Shown here: positions 2,145-7,675 of the stretch, piece by piece
Layout: each line of letters opens with the position of its first letter
Position numbering within the stretch: position 1 is the first letter of the stretch
Assembly: GCA_964549075.1 (NCBI GenBank)
Contig: CAZJUB010000094.1
Coordinates: forward strand, 1-10,035
Source: an uncultured archaeon
Lineage (GTDB): Archaea; Asgardarchaeota; Heimdallarchaeia; Heimdallarchaeales; Heimdallarchaeaceae
Reading direction: 5' to 3'
Length of the DNA: 10,035 bases
Made by a program: the position numbers and the translations under genes
The notes under the pieces: generated by a model
Told to the model about the DNA's origin: nothing
Databases searched by the model: none
What the model saw: only the letters and a program-made list of their open reading frames with translations

Positions 2145-2232
2145 AGGAAGATAGAATAAGAAACTTGATCTGAATAATCGTTGATGTTCTTCCCAGATGT
2201 TCAAGGTGAATTATAAAAAAAGGTAGAAGAGT

Positions 2233-3192
2233 TTATTTCTTCTTTTTCTTGAAATAAACTATTATAGCACTTATTGCTGCTACTCCCAAGACTACCCCCA
2301 CTACTATTCCTACAACAGCATTACTTGTTTTAATATTAATCTCATAAGGTACGAACCTTAAAGTAAGATTATAACCCGGTTGATTCTCATACGAACTGAG
2401 TAGTAAACCTGTTGTTGCTTCGTAGTATACTTCAACTTCATCGAGTATTTCAAATGAGAAAGTAAAGCTATCATTATATGCTACGTGTATAGTATCATAA
2501 GGTTCTGTACTTACGTTTATAGAAGGTTTATCAACAACTTTGCCAGGATTATCCTTGAAATTTATCTCATTGTCAATTTCTGCTTTTGGGGAAATTGCAA
2601 AAATAGTCCAAGGAAATAGGGATTTAATATCTTGATTGAACGTTTTCCAGTAGTCAGCAGTTGATTCAAGTTCAGGATATCTTGGATCCAAAGGATCAAC
2701 TTCACCAATAATATAGGATGTACCGTTAATGTAAGTAATTTTTACATTACTTTCATTGGTTAAACCAGCTATCGTATCAAGATATAAGGTTGAAATTTCA
2801 AGACTCCAAGTGCTATTCGAAAGAAATATTCTTCCTGCAAATAACAGTGTTGTTCTATTATGTTCAAAAATGAGCTGTGTCCACTCTACAGTAGTCATTG
2901 CCTCAAAGAAAGAGAATTCCACATCTTCTGAATAATTGTAACTGACTTTCAGTTGAATTAGGTTATATGGAGAATCTCTTGGTTTGAATATATCTTCAAC
3001 TATAACTTCATTTTTCCAGATCAACACATCAGTATGGGTATCATTCGTATAGAGATAGTTACCTTTAACATAACTTCCTTTCGTTAATTTTAACTCATCT
3101 GGAGCTATCAATCCTTGAGAAAGGTCTGAAATAAAGATTGAAGATATAAAGAATCCTAAGACGAAAAATGTAACAAATAATCTCTTCTTCAT
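2233..3192 (-). CDS. Secreted, C-terminally membrane-anchored cell-surface protein (319 aa)
   Basis: ATG at 3192 gives MKKRLFVTFFVLGFFISSIFIS (signal peptide-like), preferred over the track start at 3252. Beta-rich ectodomain with several N-x-S/T sequons, then a C-terminal TM (AVVGIVVGVVLGVAAISAIIVYF) and KKKKK. An A7 run at 2215-2221 gives a T tract downstream on the minus strand. Confidence 0.8.
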   Translation of the reverse strand: MKKRLFVTFFVLGFFISSIFISDLSQGLIAPDELKLTKGSYVKGNYLYTNDTHTDVLIWKNEVIVEDIFKPRDSPYNLIQLKVSYNYSEDVEFSFFEAMTTVEWTQLIFEHNRTTLLFAGRIFLSNSTWSLEISTLYLDTIAGLTNESNVKITYINGTSYIIGEVDPLDPRYPELESTADYWKTFNQDIKSLFPWTIFAISPKAEIDNEINFKDNPGKVVDKPSINVSTEPYDTIHVAYNDSFTFSFEILDEVEVYYEATTGLLLSSYENQPGYNLTLRFVPYEINIKTSNAVVGIVVGVVLGVAAISAIIVYFKKKKK

Positions 3193-3315
3193 AGTAGATA
3201 AAAATAGTAACACTGGACTAATTAATATTATGGAAGGATTCTTTATACACAAGTTAGTTATTTGTAGATTTAGTTTAAGAGATGTATCTAATTGAAAACT
3301 TGGTGAAGTATTTGC

Positions 3316-3454
3316 TTAAAGGGTACTTTATTTTTTCCCCACTAATAAGTTACTCTGTTCTTAGCTCTTTTCTATTCTCTTTATGCACTCCATGGACAAA
3401 AATCCAAAAAGGATTATCTAGTATCCTTCTGATTAATACTGTTTTTCCCTTATG
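3316..3454 (-). pseudogene. Degraded 3' fragment of a DinB/YfiT-family gene, homologous to the end of 6819-7382
   Basis: Minus strand reads HKGKTVLIRRILDNPFWIFVHGVHKENRKELRTE* versus HTGQIVLIRRMFDNPFWSFVGGVNKENRKELREEW in the other copy. TAA at 3350-3352 sits at a Trp position, and there is no 5' part. Confidence 0.88.
3362..3439. repeat. Diverged direct repeat, copy 1 (copy 2 at 6870-6947)
   Basis: Ungapped manual alignment gives 61/78 nt identical and 21/26 aa identical. Confidence 0.9.
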
Positions 3455-3534
3455 TTTCTATATCTTTTTGATACCAACAATATAAAAGGTATTTTTTTAT
3501 TTATTTTTTACAAAAATATGACATTCTAATTATG

Positions 3535-3578
3535 TTTATATTCAATGGTTTGGATAATTAAAAATGAGTGAAGAGGTG
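3535..3578 (+). promoter_or_regulatory. Candidate TATA box and Shine-Dalgarno of the Argonaute gene
   Basis: TTTATATT at 3535-3542. GAGGTG at 3573-3578 lies 5 nt before ATG 3584. The SD is more convincing than the TATA box. Confidence 0.5.
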
Positions 3579-3583
3579 TAGAA

Positions 3584-5932
3584 ATGGAGAAAGCACTATT
3601 AAATCTCTATAGAATAAAACTAAATTATGATAAACTTAACCTATATGAAATACAGTTAGATACAAATCTTTTGAAAGAGAGTGAAAAATTTTCTATAGTA
3701 AACAAGATAAGTTTCAGATTGTATGGATTAAATAAATTTTTCATCTCTGCCTATCTAAATTACATAGCATGTAAACAATTTGATAAACTTGATATAAGAC
3801 AGGTTGAAAATGTATTAAAAGAAGAACTGAAGTATGCAGGTTTGGACATTAATTTCAAAGTAAATTATAAGGAAATAAAGTTTGAGAGTGATCCAAGACT
3901 TTTTCAGCAATTTGTAGAAAGATTTCTTATCTTAGAAATAAACGATTTTCTCCGTAAATCTGGTTTTCAGACATTTCGAAGGAGTCGATATATTTCCGTT
4001 AGATTAACTGAATTAGTAGATAAATCTCTATTAATAATGAACAATTATAAAGCAGAAAGATTTGTAAACTTACGTATTATAACAAATCAAAATAATCAAA
4101 AAGAGCCATTTCTTCAAATTGATTCTACTTCCTCAATTGAAGGTACTACAACTATATGGGAACAGTTAAACCAATATATATCTAAGAATAAAATATCGAT
4201 AGAACAACTCAAAGAAAATACTGAACTACAAGAAGAGCTTAATTTAGAATTCAAATCAAATAATCCTAGATTAACTACAACATATAGTAGAAAACTTGCT
4301 ATGGGTGGTGAAAAGAAAGATCTTTATTTCTTTGTTAACTTTGATTTTAATAATAATCCTTATACAAGAAAAATAGTGATAGATAATAAGGAAATTTCTG
4401 TAAGCGAGTATTATAAATCCAAGTACAATATTGCTTTTGAGGAAAAAGAACAATTCATTGTAAATGTTCGAAGAGCTTCTCTTGGTGGTTCAAGAAGAGA
4501 TACAATTCAAGCGATTCCTATTCCTAGTAACTTGATAATTGAAACTCCTGATACAAAATCTTTAGAAAGATATGATTTCTCTTATGAGTATTCTAAATTT
4601 ACTCTTTTATCTCCTGAAGATAGAAAAAAGCTCATCGATGTTATATCATCCATCTTAATAGCAAATAATTTTATTTCTGCAGATTTAGAAGTTGATATCT
4701 TCAGAACAAAATTGCCAGAATTATTTGATGGAAAAAGAAAATTTTCATTCTATGATGAGAGAGATTACTCGGGGCAATATTTGGAATTTCCCGATATCAA
4801 ACGGATTAAGATTTTAGTTTTTTCAAAAACAGAATCTTGGTTTAATAGAAACAATGGGGGAACTATTATTAATTCATTAAAAAACGAGATTTTTTCTCAT
4901 CTAAATTTTGTTTCTACTGATTCAAGTAACAAAATTGAAAATATCAATTATGAAATTTTCTTTGAAATTCAAAAGAATTGGAAAAATACGATAGATAGAT
5001 TGATGCATAATAACAAGTTTGACGCCTATATAATTGTTACTTCACCACCTTCACAAACTTTCTACAATTACGTAAAACGAACATTTAGTATTAAAAAAGG
5101 TATACCAACACAATTTATCCTATTTTCAACGCTTCAAAAGCTTTACAAGAAAAAACATATGAAAGGTTTGGCTAAATCTTTGGTCAAACAGATTGTGGTG
5201 AAGTGTGGAGGAATCCCATATCTTCTAGTTAATAACAATATAAAAGAGACTATTTATATTGGTGTAGACAGATCAAGAGATGTTTTTAGTGATAAGCCTT
5301 CTTTAAGTGCTGGAGTTGCTGCTGTTGCTCCTAATGGAGAATATTTAGGTGCAGATTCTACATATCTAGACAAGTATACTGATGATTTCATCGACATAGC
5401 TGAAATACTACCTAGGATAATATCTAAGATAAAAACACAATGTCCTAAAGCTAAAAAATTAGTGGTTTTACGTGATGGTGGAAAATACAATATCACTGAC
5501 TATGAATTGAATACTGCAGAAAAAATTACAGAAGAAGAAAATCTCGATCTTATTTTTCTTTCTGCTAATAAATCTAGTGGATTTAGAGCTTTTAAACATA
5601 TGAACAATAAATTTGAAGGTTTTTCTCAACCAGTTTTAATCAAAGATCTACCAAATGATCAAGAAGATTTTCTCATTTTCACTACTCTACCAAGACATGG
5701 AACACAAACACCCATATTATATTCTATCCTAAAGAATACCACAGAGTTTTCATATAGTGAGATTAAGGTAGAATTAGCTGATGATTTAGCAGGTTTATGT
5801 AGTCTCGTTTGGGAAGCGATGGGACCAACAAACTTACCACTACCTTTACATTATGCAGACAAACTAGCTGGTTTTTGTAAGAACATTGAAACTCCTTGGG
5901 ATTCTGAGATAGAAGCACCTCTCTTTATCTAA
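3584..5932 (+). CDS. ago: Long prokaryotic Argonaute (N-L1-PAZ-L2-MID-PIWI), 782 aa
   Basis: MID 5'-phosphate pocket Y494/K498/Q510/K540 (FYNYVK...GIPTQFI...QIVVKCGGIP). PIWI motifs IYIGVD(562), LVVLRD(631)GG and LPLPLHYAD(759)KLA. PAZ motif ISVSEYYKSKYNI, L2 motif TLLSPEDR, hydrophobic C-terminus APLFI. Confidence 0.96.
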   Translation: MEKALLNLYRIKLNYDKLNLYEIQLDTNLLKESEKFSIVNKISFRLYGLNKFFISAYLNYIACKQFDKLDIRQVENVLKEELKYAGLDINFKVNYKEIKFESDPRLFQQFVERFLILEINDFLRKSGFQTFRRSRYISVRLTELVDKSLLIMNNYKAERFVNLRIITNQNNQKEPFLQIDSTSSIEGTTTIWEQLNQYISKNKISIEQLKENTELQEELNLEFKSNNPRLTTTYSRKLAMGGEKKDLYFFVNFDFNNNPYTRKIVIDNKEISVSEYYKSKYNIAFEEKEQFIVNVRRASLGGSRRDTIQAIPIPSNLIIETPDTKSLERYDFSYEYSKFTLLSPEDRKKLIDVISSILIANNFISADLEVDIFRTKLPELFDGKRKFSFYDERDYSGQYLEFPDIKRIKILVFSKTESWFNRNNGGTIINSLKNEIFSHLNFVSTDSSNKIENINYEIFFEIQKNWKNTIDRLMHNNKFDAYIIVTSPPSQTFYNYVKRTFSIKKGIPTQFILFSTLQKLYKKKHMKGLAKSLVKQIVVKCGGIPYLLVNNNIKETIYIGVDRSRDVFSDKPSLSAGVAAVAPNGEYLGADSTYLDKYTDDFIDIAEILPRIISKIKTQCPKAKKLVVLRDGGKYNITDYELNTAEKITEEENLDLIFLSANKSSGFRAFKHMNNKFEGFSQPVLIKDLPNDQEDFLIFTTLPRHGTQTPILYSILKNTTEFSYSEIKVELADDLAGLCSLVWEAMGPTNLPLPLHYADKLAGFCKNIETPWDSEIEAPLFI

Positions 5933-5961
5933 AGCTTACTATGAAAGAGTGAAGTGATACA

Positions 5962-6396
5962 ATGAAAGAAAATAAACAAAAAAAAGTAAGATTTACTTGG
6001 ATCACTCATATATTTGATTTTGGACAAAAATATAGTATAGAAGGAAAAGATAAACATAAACTGATATACAACTCACTTTTTGTTCCTCTTATGATTTCTC
6101 ATATAACTATGATTGTAATAATATCAATTCTATCACACTTTCAAGTAATAAATGTACATGTTTCACCTATATTCCCCACGCCATATTATAATAGCGCTGG
6201 ATTTTTTGTGCTTTTTTCTGTTATTCCTGAATTACTTTATGTTAGTGCATTTTTACTTTTCTTTTATGATTTAAGAGAACAGAAGGAAGAAGAGAAAAAC
6301 AAAACTGAGGAGAAAGATCATCTGAAATTGGTACTTTTCCTTATATTTTTAGCTGTGATTATTCAGTTTATCATACTACTATTCTTTTATCTTTAA
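5962..6396 (+). CDS. Hypothetical integral membrane protein (3 predicted TM helices), possibly Argonaute-associated
   Basis: Three hydrophobic stretches (LFVPLMISHITMIVIISIL; AGFFVLFSVIPELLYVSAFLLFFY; LVLFLIFLAVIIQFIILLFFYL) and a charged loop. It starts 29 nt after the ago stop, with purine-rich GAGTGAAGTGA upstream. Confidence 0.72.
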   Translation: MKENKQKKVRFTWITHIFDFGQKYSIEGKDKHKLIYNSLFVPLMISHITMIVIISILSHFQVINVHVSPIFPTPYYNSAGFFVLFSVIPELLYVSAFLLFFYDLREQKEEEKNKTEEKDHLKLVLFLIFLAVIIQFIILLFFYL

Positions 6397-6413
6397 TTTC
6401 TTTTTCTTTTTTT
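6397..6413 (+). terminator. Archaeal oligo-T terminator candidate
   Basis: TTTCTTTTTCTTTTTTT immediately follows the TAA at 6394-6396. Confidence 0.55.
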
Positions 6414-6451
6414 CAATCAAAAACATTCCTATTTATTTTCTGTTTTGTACG

Positions 6452-6798
6452 ATTCTTCCTTAAATAATCGAAACAAGTTCTGTATATCTTTACTGAGAAG
6501 AAGTTTATGGTGCCACCTTTTATTATATCTACAGACCAACTAATCCTATCTGGATTATGGAAGGAATAACACCTATTGACTTTACATCAAACACAGATTT
6601 TATTAATTATTTACTGGATGAAGGTACATATTATTACGCTGTTGTAGCAGATAATTTTGTAGATAATAGTTTGACATCTCGCTTAGCTTATGTTGAGTAT
6701 AAAATTCCGCATCTAAGAGAATTTGCGATAATAACAAGTTTACTAGTAAGTACAGTTATTATCTCATTTTTGTATTTAGAAAGTGAAAAAAGCAATGA
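6452..6798 (+). pseudogene. Relic C-terminus of a surface protein (FN3-like domain + TM anchor)
   Basis: In frame upstream of ATG 6557: ILP*IIETSSVYLY*EEVYGATFYYIYRP...EGTYYYAVVADN. TGA 6494-6496 sits where FN3 has its conserved Trp. After the TM, the basic tail VFRK*KKQ* is in another frame following the T5 run at 6767-6771. There is no N-terminus. Confidence 0.7.
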
Positions 6799-6818
6799 GA
6801 TATTTTTTTCTTTCTATT

Positions 6819-7382
6819 TTATCTATACTTTTCTTTTTTTTCTTTCCACCAAGTTGCCCATTCTTCTCTAAGCTCTTTCCTATTTTCTTTATTCACTCCT
6901 CCTACAAAACTCCAGAAGGGATTATCAAACATCCTTCTAATCAAAACTATCTGCCCTGTATGTCCCAGCATATGGAGAGCTACTCTTTTTATCAGATCTG
7001 ACAGTTTTTCCTGTGCTTTCTCGTGTGGTATCTCTTCAAATTTCTCTTCTTCTAGATTCTCTAATATTTGATAGAATTTTTCTGTTATTTTCAGATGAGC
7101 ATCTAGTAGTTTTACATATGAATAAGGATAATTTTTGATTCTATCTTTGGAAATTCCATAATCATAAAAATCCCCTTCTTCTTTGGTCGGCAATTGTTTA
7201 TTAGCTAACAGAAACAAATACCAATCAACATGTTAAACGCAAAGCCCAACGATCCAGGCGATAGTATTGACATTTTCTACTGCTCTTTGATTTACTAGTT
7301 CTGGTTTCACTTCTTTTAAAGCCATCAGGAAATTAATCTCTGCTATTTCTAAAAATGATAGAAGTTCTTCTTTAGTATCCAA
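6819..7382 (-). pseudogene. DinB/YfiT-like (DinB_2) putative metalloenzyme with an internal stop codon
   Basis: From TTG 7382: DTKEELLSFLEIAEINFLMALKEV...NTIAWIVGLCV*HVDWYL...RVALHMLGHTGQIVLIRR. In-frame TAA at 7233-7235. The HxxxHxGQ motif is intact, but the first metal-binding His (expected 'WIVGH') reads Leu (CTT). Confidence 0.85.
6870..6947. repeat. Diverged direct repeat, copy 2 (copy 1 at 3362-3439)
   Basis: 61/78 nt identity with copy 1. Confidence 0.9.
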
Positions 7383-7675
7383 GCTTCTTATCCCTATGTT
7401 CAAAGGTTCAAGTTCTTATTGAAATGGAAAATTATTGTTCCTATTTTCTTAATTCTAATCATTATTCCTGATACTTTTGTAATTATCTTTCAACCTTTTA
7501 GAATTTCTAATACTATTGATTATTCTTTGTTCCCCACTAAACTCTCTTCTATTAGTACTCAAGAGTTCTTTTGCGAGGATTTATTTGTTCATGATGAACC
7601 ATTTTTTTCTCTTATCTGAATTTTTTTCTACTGTCACGATAAGATTTTTATTCTTTCATTATTATAACGTAAGGT

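Follow-up and report, generated by a model that had tools for sequence, protein, structure and literature searches.

A PIWI-like PAZ-L2 region in an Argonaute of a second Asgard lineage

Introduction

RNA silencing in eukaryotes is believed to have its roots in archaeal Argonautes, and, to our knowledge, HrAgo1 is the only prokaryotic protein so far shown to act like a eukaryotic Argonaute (eAgo). The locus analyzed here raises the question of whether a further Asgard protein can inform on this descent. It is an Argonaute gene, P0001, located in a 10,035-nucleotide (nt) stretch of archaeal DNA, hereafter the window, which is the whole of contig C94 of genome G000. A first-pass annotation of this sequence had noted a eukaryotic PIWI-like PAZ domain and L2 linker and had suggested a probable Asgard Argonaute informative on the origins of RNA interference.

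The reference point is HrAgo1 of 'Ca. Harpocratesius repetitus' (PDB 8R3Z; Bastiaanssen et al. 2024, PMC11217426). That article distributes 138 Asgard Argonautes (asAgos) over 15 clades, reports no asAgo clade basal to AGO and PIWI, mentions a single truncated HrAgo1 homologue, and describes the rnc/helicase neighborhood as unique to HrAgo1. Two other articles place most asAgos in the clade that gave rise to eAgos (PMC11291487, PMC12988326). Here we report that P0001 belongs to a second asAgo lineage, distinct from that of HrAgo1 and much larger, that is located on the eukaryotic side of the Argonaute tree. The clade of P0001 may already be among the 15 clades of PMC11217426.

Results

P0001 is a complete long Argonaute

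The frame at 3584-5932 (+) is free of stops across 782 codons, and its translation confirmed the residues quoted by the first-pass annotation; amino acids (aa) 228-347, encoded by nt 4265-4624, read PRLTTTYSRKLAMGGEKKDLYFFVNFDFNNNPYTRKIVIDNKEISVSEYYKSKYNIAFEEKEQFIVNVRRASLGGSRRDTIQAIPIPSNLIIETPDTKSLERYDFSYEYSKFTLLSPEDR. P0001 is a complete long Argonaute with the six-domain layout N-L1-PAZ-L2-MID-PIWI, the parts of which are as follows.

3584..5932 (+): Argonaute coding sequence P0001, 782 aa, ATG start, stop included (open reading frame [ORF] list and translation)
3584..4129 (+): N and L1 domains, aa 1-182, boundary approximate (secondary structure of the model; the eAgo alignment begins at model residue 1)
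4130..4579 (+): PAZ domain, aa 183-332 (Pfam PAZ on aa 180-365, PAZ-only model, and structural matches)
4580..4768 (+): L2 linker, aa 333-395 (SKFTLLSPEDR motif at its start; model helices 333-340 and 344-360)
4769..5227 (+): MID domain, aa 396-548 (MID chains align to model residues 396-548, Z 11.7-13.5)
5228..5929 (+): PIWI (RNase H-like) domain, aa 549-782 (structural matches of Endonuclease V and RNase H chains span 551-770)

The Pfam family Piwi (PF02171) matched aa 484-766 with 104.1 bits (E 1.1e-29; cut-off, 28.9 bits), and the prokaryotic Argonaute (pAgo) models of PADLOC matched the protein with 122.7 bits; Piwi_N and ArgoN were not matched in the Pfam scan. The full-length AlphaFold2 (AF2) model had a predicted local distance difference test score (pLDDT) of 92.7 and a predicted TM score of 0.91. 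Since its Z scores against the top 1000 Foldseek chains were non-discriminating (30.9-33.3, including the AfAgo MID-PIWI at 31.2), a representative PDB library was used for comparison instead. In this library, Argonautes were aligned end to end over 669-680 residues with Z scores of 29.7-31.4, namely, EfPiwi (31.4), fly Piwi (31.0), Arabidopsis AGO10 (30.8), and HrAgo1 (29.7), all of the eukaryote-like side. The long pAgos ranged from 16.8 to 27.8: RsAgo 27.8, CpAgo 27.3, AaAgo 25.6, CtAgo 24.5, MjAgo 23.1, PfAgo 22.7, and TtAgo 16.8. Every one of the top 50 Foldseek rows was a eukaryotic Argonaute or HrAgo1, and the ten structure sets nearest to the ESM Atlas model of P0001, which draws on none of our alignments, were all eukaryotic PIWI/AGO clusters (TM 0.73-0.81).

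The PAZ-L2 region resembles eukaryotic PIWI, AGO, and HrAgo1 more than the sampled classical pAgos

Among the Argonautes sampled, classical pAgos proved more distant from the PAZ-L2 region of P0001 than eukaryotic PIWI, AGO, and HrAgo1 were. The resemblance to eukaryotic PIWI proposed in the first-pass annotation was thus borne out: the sequence profile of PAZ-L2 favors eukaryotic PIWI, and the PAZ model favors HrAgo1, AGO, and PIWI. The evidence is threefold. (i) For the profile comparison, a query covering aa 183-365 was aligned using hhalign with the N-terminal halves of five groups, which were unequal in size and comprised no AGO-clade profile. The query built from P0001 and its closest relative in the tree, P0003, matched 20 eukaryotic PIWIs best (94.8%, E 4.9e-8), followed by the Asgard sister subclade described below (92.0%, E 6.6e-7), HrAgo1-like proteins (85.8%, E 5.4e-6), CtAgo-like long-A pAgos (3.1%, E 0.014), and the group of TtAgo, Pontibacillus, and Natrarchaeobaculum (0.2%, E 0.33). 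A query of eleven sequences from the same side of the clade again matched eukaryotic PIWIs best (98.0%, E 1.4e-13), with 94.8% for both the Asgard sister subclade and the HrAgo1-like proteins, 81.7% for the CtAgo-like long-A group, and 74.6% for the TtAgo/Pontibacillus/Natrarchaeobaculum group. Eukaryotic profiles therefore outscored those of pAgos, as did eukaryotic structures in the comparison under (iii).

(ii) At the level of single sequences, the signal was smaller. Pfam PAZ (PF02170) scored 24 bits with whole P0001, which is under its cut-off of 28.8 bits, and a borderline 28.9 bits (E 1.2e-6) with aa 180-365 only; the latter segment did not match PAZ_3, the TtAgo-type family that TtAgo itself matches. 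A phmmer search of all PDB sequences with P0001 returned 13 matches at E <= 1. Full-length proteins of the PIWI clade accounted for seven of these, led by Piwi-like 1 (3.1e-6), and PIWI PAZ domains on their own for four or five; the others were a short pAgo and an unrelated peroxiredoxin, and no long pAgo was among them. The alignment of aa 190-763 with Piwi-like protein 1 paired EYYKSKYNI with EYYRKQYNQ and TLLSPEDR with TRLTPEQR, in the register seen in the first-pass annotation. In BLASTP, the PAZ-L2 segment was matched to HrAgo1 at E 0.012 in the correct register, with the SPEDR stretch opposite TQMSPSDR, and was not matched significantly to one PIWIL1 (correct register at E 17). Since pairwise BLAST is weak, the PIWI resemblance of PAZ-L2 is detectable only by profile and structure methods.

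(iii) For the structural comparison, an AlphaFold model of the PAZ domain only (aa 183-332; pLDDT 90.4) was computed with prokaryotic members of the clade as the sole sequences in its alignment and compared with 48,161 representative PDB chains. HrAgo1 (Z 12.6, rmsd 1.6, 99 residues aligned) and the PAZ domain of human AGO1 (Z 12.1, rmsd 3.2, 118 residues aligned) were followed by fly Piwi (11.4), Giardia Dicer (11.1), and EfPiwi (10.8). The Z scores of pAgos were 9.9 for TtAgo, 8.3 for CtAgo, 7.7 for CpAgo, 7.5 for PfAgo, 6.6 for AaAgo, 6.1 for MjAgo, 4.8 for MpAgo, and 3.6 for RsAgo. This ranking is consistent, yet the best pAgo, TtAgo, is merely 1 to 2.7 Z units behind.

A mostly Asgard-labeled clade neighbors eukaryotic PIWI and HrAgo1 in a MID-PIWI tree

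An index of 5.8 billion proteins contained, besides P0001 itself, one relative with 54% identity. An exhaustive search of representative sequences retrieved 119 proteins at E <= 1e-3, 23 of them at E <= 1e-30. The nearer relatives were of the prokaryotic type (Pfam Piwi scores of about 50-105 bits; of 22 scanned, 2 had a PAZ match at E <= 1e-3), and the farther ones were of the eukaryotic PIWI type, most with Piwi scores of >150 bits. A profile of 17 sequences of the Asgard clade (alignment A3), built without any eukaryotic sequence, matched in the PDB Siwi (3.2e-16), then ten further PIWI sequences (up to 6.8e-11), and next CtAgo as the best pAgo (8.4e-8), AfAgo and AaAgo (~1e-7), and human AGO2 (8.6e-6).

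We then inferred a maximum likelihood (ML) tree of the MID-PIWI region (83 rows by 391 columns after three duplicate rows were dropped; IQ-TREE, LG+C20+F+G4 with posterior mean site frequencies; support as ultrafast bootstrap/SH-aLRT). In this tree, P0001 and P0003 form a pair (100/100) that is sister to a 16-row subclade (99/86), and P0001 lies within a 31-row, largely Asgard-labeled clade (100/98). This clade and the orphan P0070 join a 33-row clade of eukaryotic PIWI and HrAgo1-like proteins (100/100) across a branch with 99/95 support, beyond which are the CtAgo/AaAgo-like long-A group, TtAgo, two plasmid pAgos (of Pontibacillus and Natrarchaeobaculum), and the short pAgos. The split persisted after removal of five long-branch rows (SH-aLRT 94). 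The MID-PIWI tree thus shows the 31-row, mostly Asgard-labeled clade as a neighbor of eukaryotic PIWI and HrAgo1. A long-branched pair within it, P0035 and P0030, with 35% identity across 464 aa, has ...VFYA at its end and W-K-Q-K in the MID pocket.

The 16-row sister subclade (P0006-P0018, L039, L040, L042, L043), the nearest large group of relatives, includes records titled Heimdallarchaeota and Borrarchaeum. Its members are 21-35% identical to P0001 and have the same D-D-D-D set of active-site residues and the same C-terminal LPLHYADKLA motif. They differ in that Pfam PAZ was found in none of the eight members scanned, and their N-terminal halves match the PAZ-L2 of P0001 less well than eukaryotic PIWI does.

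To locate HrAgo1 in our data, we relied on PDB matches. The 817-aa ORF P0122 of genome G134, given that name by one source, is HrAgo1, since it matched PDB 8R3Z over its full length with 1856.6 bits; PDB searches ruled out P0005 and P0035 (both 837 aa). P0001 was likewise rejected as an HrAgo1 orthologue, as the two are 23% identical in the PIWI domain only and P0001 is outside the HrAgo1/eukaryotic PIWI clade. With HrAgo1 as the query, a word-indexed search retrieved 41 proteins, namely, HrAgo1 and 40 PIWI-like proteins. Three further full-length proteins, P0123, P0060, and P0066, group with HrAgo1 (100/100) and have Pfam Piwi scores of 204-224 bits.

The active site carries four aspartates and the guide pocket matches that of HrAgo1

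The residues of P0001 that align with the catalytic tetrad of HrAgo1, which according to PMC11217426 is D585/E623/D655/H792, are as follows.

5267..5269 (+): D562, first tetrad Asp, aligned to HrAgo1 D585, nearly invariant in the clade
5384..5386 (+): D601, 'glutamate finger' position with Asp for Glu, aligned to HrAgo1 E623 and to the Glu of Piwi-like 1
5474..5476 (+): D631, catalytic, RDG motif, opposite HrAgo1 D655 and unchanged throughout alignment A3
5858..5860 (+): D759, fourth residue of the tetrad, in HYADKLA, aligned to HrAgo1 H792 (YAHKVA)

At the finger position, Asp is present in 30 of the 31 clade rows and in none of the 33 eukaryotic/HrAgo1-like rows, 27 of which have Glu. The fourth residue varies across the clade, where 22 of the 31 rows have D, 6 have H, and 3 have N. 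Compared with the DEDX set of classical long-A pAgos, the first, third, and fourth residues of P0001 fit, and the second is Asp instead of Glu. Because all four positions are acidic and the finger Asp is kept in 30 of 31 rows, purifying selection on a working site is suggested, and P0001 is probably an active Argonaute. Judged by its aligned residues, the 5'-phosphate pocket of the MID domain is intact: Y494, K498, Q510, and K540 (YKQK) occupy the columns of HrAgo1 Y512, K516, Q528, and K555. The text of PMC11217426 gives Phe512 and Asn528 for HrAgo1, and the sequence matching 8R3Z has Tyr512 and Gln528.

RNase III and helicase genes accompany the sister subclade

Among nine distinct sister-subclade loci with upstream sequence, eight have an RNase III gene directly 5' of the Argonaute gene. 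Three of these were recognized by Pfam Ribonuclease_3, two of them with a double-stranded RNA (dsRNA)-binding domain (dsRBD), and the other five by a profile made from those three. A superfamily 1 (SF1) helicase gene (AAA_11/AAA_12, ~1160-1200 aa) lies 3' of the Argonaute gene in three of nine loci with downstream sequence. The loci are L041 (1434-7961), L049 (349-6925), L039 (4308-7368), L043 (3708-6879), L042 (1-5222), L046, L047, L048, and L051. The order RNase III-Argonaute-helicase equals that of the HrAgo1 locus, and the helicase beside HrAgo1 is 34-37% identical to those of the sister subclade over ~840 aa. A common origin of the RNase III partners of the sister clade and of HrAgo1 was considered and is unsupported by similarity (27-31% versus 36.5%; see Discussion). 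A full-text search of the literature, supplementary data being outside its scope, found no description of an RNase III-linked asAgo besides HrAgo1. In the HrAgo1 group, the copy on G133:C109 (L005/L058) has RNase III-like genes on either side.

In genome G000, the profiles of Argonaute-linked genes detected only a weak match to a housekeeping RNase III (56.4 bits, contig C4) and one to a generic helicase (56.6 bits, contig C8), and no Argonaute-type copy of either gene. The sole RNase III of G000 is of the bacterial type (G000:C4:26427-27161, minus strand) and is found in 21 of 25 genomes of the genus.

P0001 lies in a strain-specific island of an Asgard genome

Genome G000 amounts to 3.23 Mb in 217 contigs, with estimates of 89.7% completeness and 3.39% contamination. 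A scan across 400 genomes from the phylum placed G000 in the same phylum as G134, which encodes HrAgo1, and the host of P0001 is therefore an Asgard archaeon. Piwi genes were found in 30 of these 400 genomes; the 24 further genomes belonging to the genus had none, nor had 30 of the family. The Asgard origin presumed in the first-pass annotation also agrees with the gene content of the contig: its methyltransferase and GNAT genes are 81-85% identical to adjoining genes of a congener. The GNAT gene shows 85% identity to its counterpart in the congener G019, so the contig can be taken as native to the genus. This GNAT gene (1098-2144) encodes a two-domain acetyltransferase of an expanded family, which matched 8 times in G000 and as many as 11 times in a congener.

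A tblastx comparison of G019:C78 with the window matched 1-966, 1099-2135, and 6834-7388 in adjoining stretches, and nothing else exceeded 62 bits between them. Because the methyltransferase and GNAT genes of G019 adjoin the homologue of 6834-7388, the window contains ~4.7 kb of extra sequence.

2145..6830 (no strand): strain-specific island of ~4.7 kb absent from the congener, limits approximate, containing the Argonaute gene and four ORFs
2233-3252 (-), 3282-3485, 5962-6396, 6557-6871: island ORFs other than the Argonaute gene, family-less in Pfam and PADLOC

By eye, these four ORFs look hydrophobic or predicted-membrane. The GC content of the Argonaute gene is 29.0%, versus 32.4% for the genome. 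The two closest fragments, L037 and L045, share no synteny with the window beyond the Argonaute gene. The closest fragment in named genomes, L037 (3-377), is 77% identical over the last 125 aa and comes from a record titled Aenigmatarchaeota; it is on a 2.6-kb contig of a DPANN-titled metagenome-assembled genome (MAG), with an adjoining NERD-domain gene, pointing to interphylum transfer or to a binning or labeling problem. L045 (3-686, 1389-3319) carries a 70%-identical metagenomic Argonaute fragment, after which come a Cas3-like DEAD helicase and an ORF with an HD domain, and looks like a defense island. The genome of P0001 contains a second Argonaute system of another type on G000:C169 (L002 60-929 and 907-2397), a class I short pAgo of 496 aa (PADLOC pAgo_I, 392 bits) preceded by a partial ORF that matches Aga_REase-PNTD1-PNTD2 models.

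Discussion

P0001 falls outside the pAgo groups sampled, its PAZ-L2 region scores better against eukaryotic profiles than against those of pAgos, and its contig is from an Asgard genome; the idea of a probable Asgard Argonaute informative on the origins of RNA interference is thus supported. Its relationship to known systems can be summarized as follows. (i) P0001 and HrAgo1 are both Asgard proteins with the full six-domain layout and the YKQK pocket; both are on the eukaryotic side of the 99/95 branch, and HrAgo1 is alike in PAZ fold (Z 12.6) and over its full length (Z 29.7). They differ in Pfam scores (Piwi 212 and PAZ 73 bits for HrAgo1 versus 104 and 24-29 bits), in the tetrad (DEDH versus D-D-D-D), in the neighborhood (rnc and helicase genes flank HrAgo1, and neither flanks P0001), and in the host, which is of a different class of the same phylum. 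(ii) Eukaryotic PIWIs (Siwi, EfPiwi, MILI/MIWI, fly Piwi) are the top PDB sequence and PAZ-L2 profile matches, share EYYxxxYNI and LSPEDR-type motifs with P0001, and reach full-length Z scores of 31.0-31.4. However, their identity to P0001 in structural alignments is 13-16%, P0001 differs by the Asp at the finger and at the fourth position, and, unlike them, it is encoded by a prokaryotic gene in a small island. (iii) Classical long-A pAgos (TtAgo and the CtAgo/AaAgo/CbAgo group) resemble P0001 in domain order, a tetrad ending in Asp, and a distribution in the style of defense islands, but they are across the 99/95 branch, match the PAZ-L2 profile at 0.2-3.1%, and have full-length Z scores of 16.8-27.8 versus 29.7-31.4. 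(iv) Short pAgo systems, with MID-PIWI only, an inactive PIWI domain, and an APAZ partner, are unlike P0001, which is full length and has an acidic tetrad.

On these data, we favor, with some confidence, the view that P0001 is a complete, probably active Asgard long Argonaute that uses a 5'-phosphorylated guide against invading or selfish elements. It would bind a small guide with a 5' phosphate, anchor the guide's 3' end in the pocket of the PAZ domain, and cut the complementary nucleic acid of such elements. An RNA guide appears slightly likelier than a DNA guide, because the sister subclade usually has a 5' RNase III-dsRBD gene and some HrAgo1-type helicases. Any guides derived from dsRNA would be made in trans, for example, by the genus-wide RNase III of contig C4.

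A number of observations weigh against this interpretation or against the eukaryotic affinity behind it. (i) The alignment used for the full-length AF2 model contained eukaryotic PIWIs, and in ESM language-model features, the clusters that come closest to P0001 are bacterial and archaeal pAgos (0.96-0.97 versus 0.93 for eukaryotic ones). (ii) The similarity to eAgos is far weaker than that of HrAgo1, the best PIWI match in the phmmer search of the PDB being 3e-6 for P0001 versus 2e-81 for HrAgo1; among PDB sequences, HrAgo1 was missed both by phmmer with P0001 and by hmmsearch with the A3 profile. (iii) The implication of the first-pass annotation that P0001 is distinct from ordinary pAgos holds in the tree for the CtAgo/AaAgo-like, TtAgo, Pontibacillus, and Natrarchaeobaculum groups and is less firm beyond that: the tree was made without the AGO clade, the trypanosome Argonautes, PfAgo, and MjAgo, its named outgroups are from plasmid records, and an approximately unbiased (AU) test under LG+G4, with groups defined post hoc after tree inspection, left standing the grouping of eukaryotic PIWI/HrAgo1 with classical long-A pAgos (delta lnL 29.8, p 0.061). 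(iv) RNase III and helicase genes are absent from the 10-kb contig, as searched with Pfam and with profiles of Argonaute-linked genes, and, as the only RNase III is the genus-wide one, nothing ties P0001 to dsRNA processing. (v) The RNase III linked to HrAgo1 is 36.5% identical to the genus-wide RNase III of G000 versus 27-31% to the sister-clade genes; since it is nearer to the housekeeping gene, the association with RNase III may have arisen repeatedly. (vi) The Asp at the finger position could lower or abolish cleavage, and we know of no Argonaute with Asp at this position that has been tested.

Several of these points would also be expected if P0001, in the manner of TtAgo or CbAgo, were an ordinary DNA-guided, DNA-targeting long pAgo defense nuclease, in which case the PIWI-like PAZ would be an ancestral fold that is uninformative on the guide. 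Tetrads of the DEDD type with a terminal Asp are typical of pAgos, and the fourth residue of P0001 is D759, not the His of eAgos. The absence of RNase III and helicase neighbors on the contig, the strain-specific island, the defense-like Cas3-like and NERD genes beside close relatives, the ESM features, the PADLOC score, and the small distance of the TtAgo PAZ from eukaryotic ones fit this reading as well. Nevertheless, we consider it rather unlikely, since the sister-clade loci are linked to RNase III-dsRBD genes, the position in the tree adjoins the RNA-guided HrAgo1/PIWI lineage, and the clade and PAZ-L2 profiles fit PIWI far better than pAgos.

Another reading concerns activity. With D601 in place of the finger Glu, P0001 might only bind, or be weakly active, the Glu-to-Asp change disabling slicing, and silencing would then need other proteins, perhaps membrane proteins of the island, in which three family-less ORFs (2233-3252 [-], 5962-6396, and 6557-6871) are candidates. 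In line with this reading, Leao et al. (PMC11291487) state that a DED triad is retained in only about 20% of asAgos. This reading is improbable in view of the four acidic positions and of the finger Asp in 30 of 31 clade rows, and the neighbors of P0001 lack conservation in the two nearest relatives with downstream sequence.

That P0001 is an archaeal PIWI, a member of the HrAgo1/PIWI clade proper, would agree with PIWI proteins as top PDB sequence matches and with HrAgo1 as the structure nearest to the PAZ model. It is very improbable, as the tree contradicts it by placing P0001 outside the 33-row clade (100/100), the identity to HrAgo1 is low and confined to PIWI, the Pfam scores are less than half those of HrAgo1, and the tetrad is D-D-D-D rather than DEDH. 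The notion of a non-archaeal gene on a contaminant or mis-binned contig, for which the contamination estimate of the MAG and the Aenigmatarchaeota title of the closest fragment could be cited, is scarcely credible given the methyltransferase and GNAT genes shared with a congener, the GC content of the gene relative to that of the genome, and the Heimdallarchaeota and Borrarchaeum titles of the records of other clade members.

Our preferred reading of P0001, a probably active, guide-using Argonaute, can be extended to the whole clade of ~30 proteins, although only tentatively, and we hold this extension to be doubtful. The clade would be the closest prokaryotic sister to the lineage of HrAgo1 and eukaryotic PIWI, or of all eAgos, and would thereby supply the basal asAgo that Bastiaanssen et al. 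described as not yet found. If this sister placement is true, the clade-wide recurrence of RNase III, Argonaute, and HrAgo1-type SF1 helicase would imply a Dicer-like pathway from dsRNA to guides that pre-dated eukaryotes in Asgards of the Heimdall and Borr types. Under the same extension, the PAZ-L2 of P0001 would be the most PIWI-like of the clade at the sequence level, and the D-D-D-D site would work without a glutamate finger.

Taken together, P0001 may bear on how RNA silencing began. P0001 keeps a PIWI-like PAZ-L2 region, and Argonautes of its sister branch are associated with RNase III and with a helicase akin to the one beside HrAgo1. With a conserved Asp where the glutamate finger would be, the protein also offers a testable variant of Argonaute catalysis. 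If P0001 proved to be DNA guided, it would mark the point of the switch to RNA; if RNA guides were shown, RNA-guided silencing would be a trait of an Asgard lineage rather than the property of one protein.

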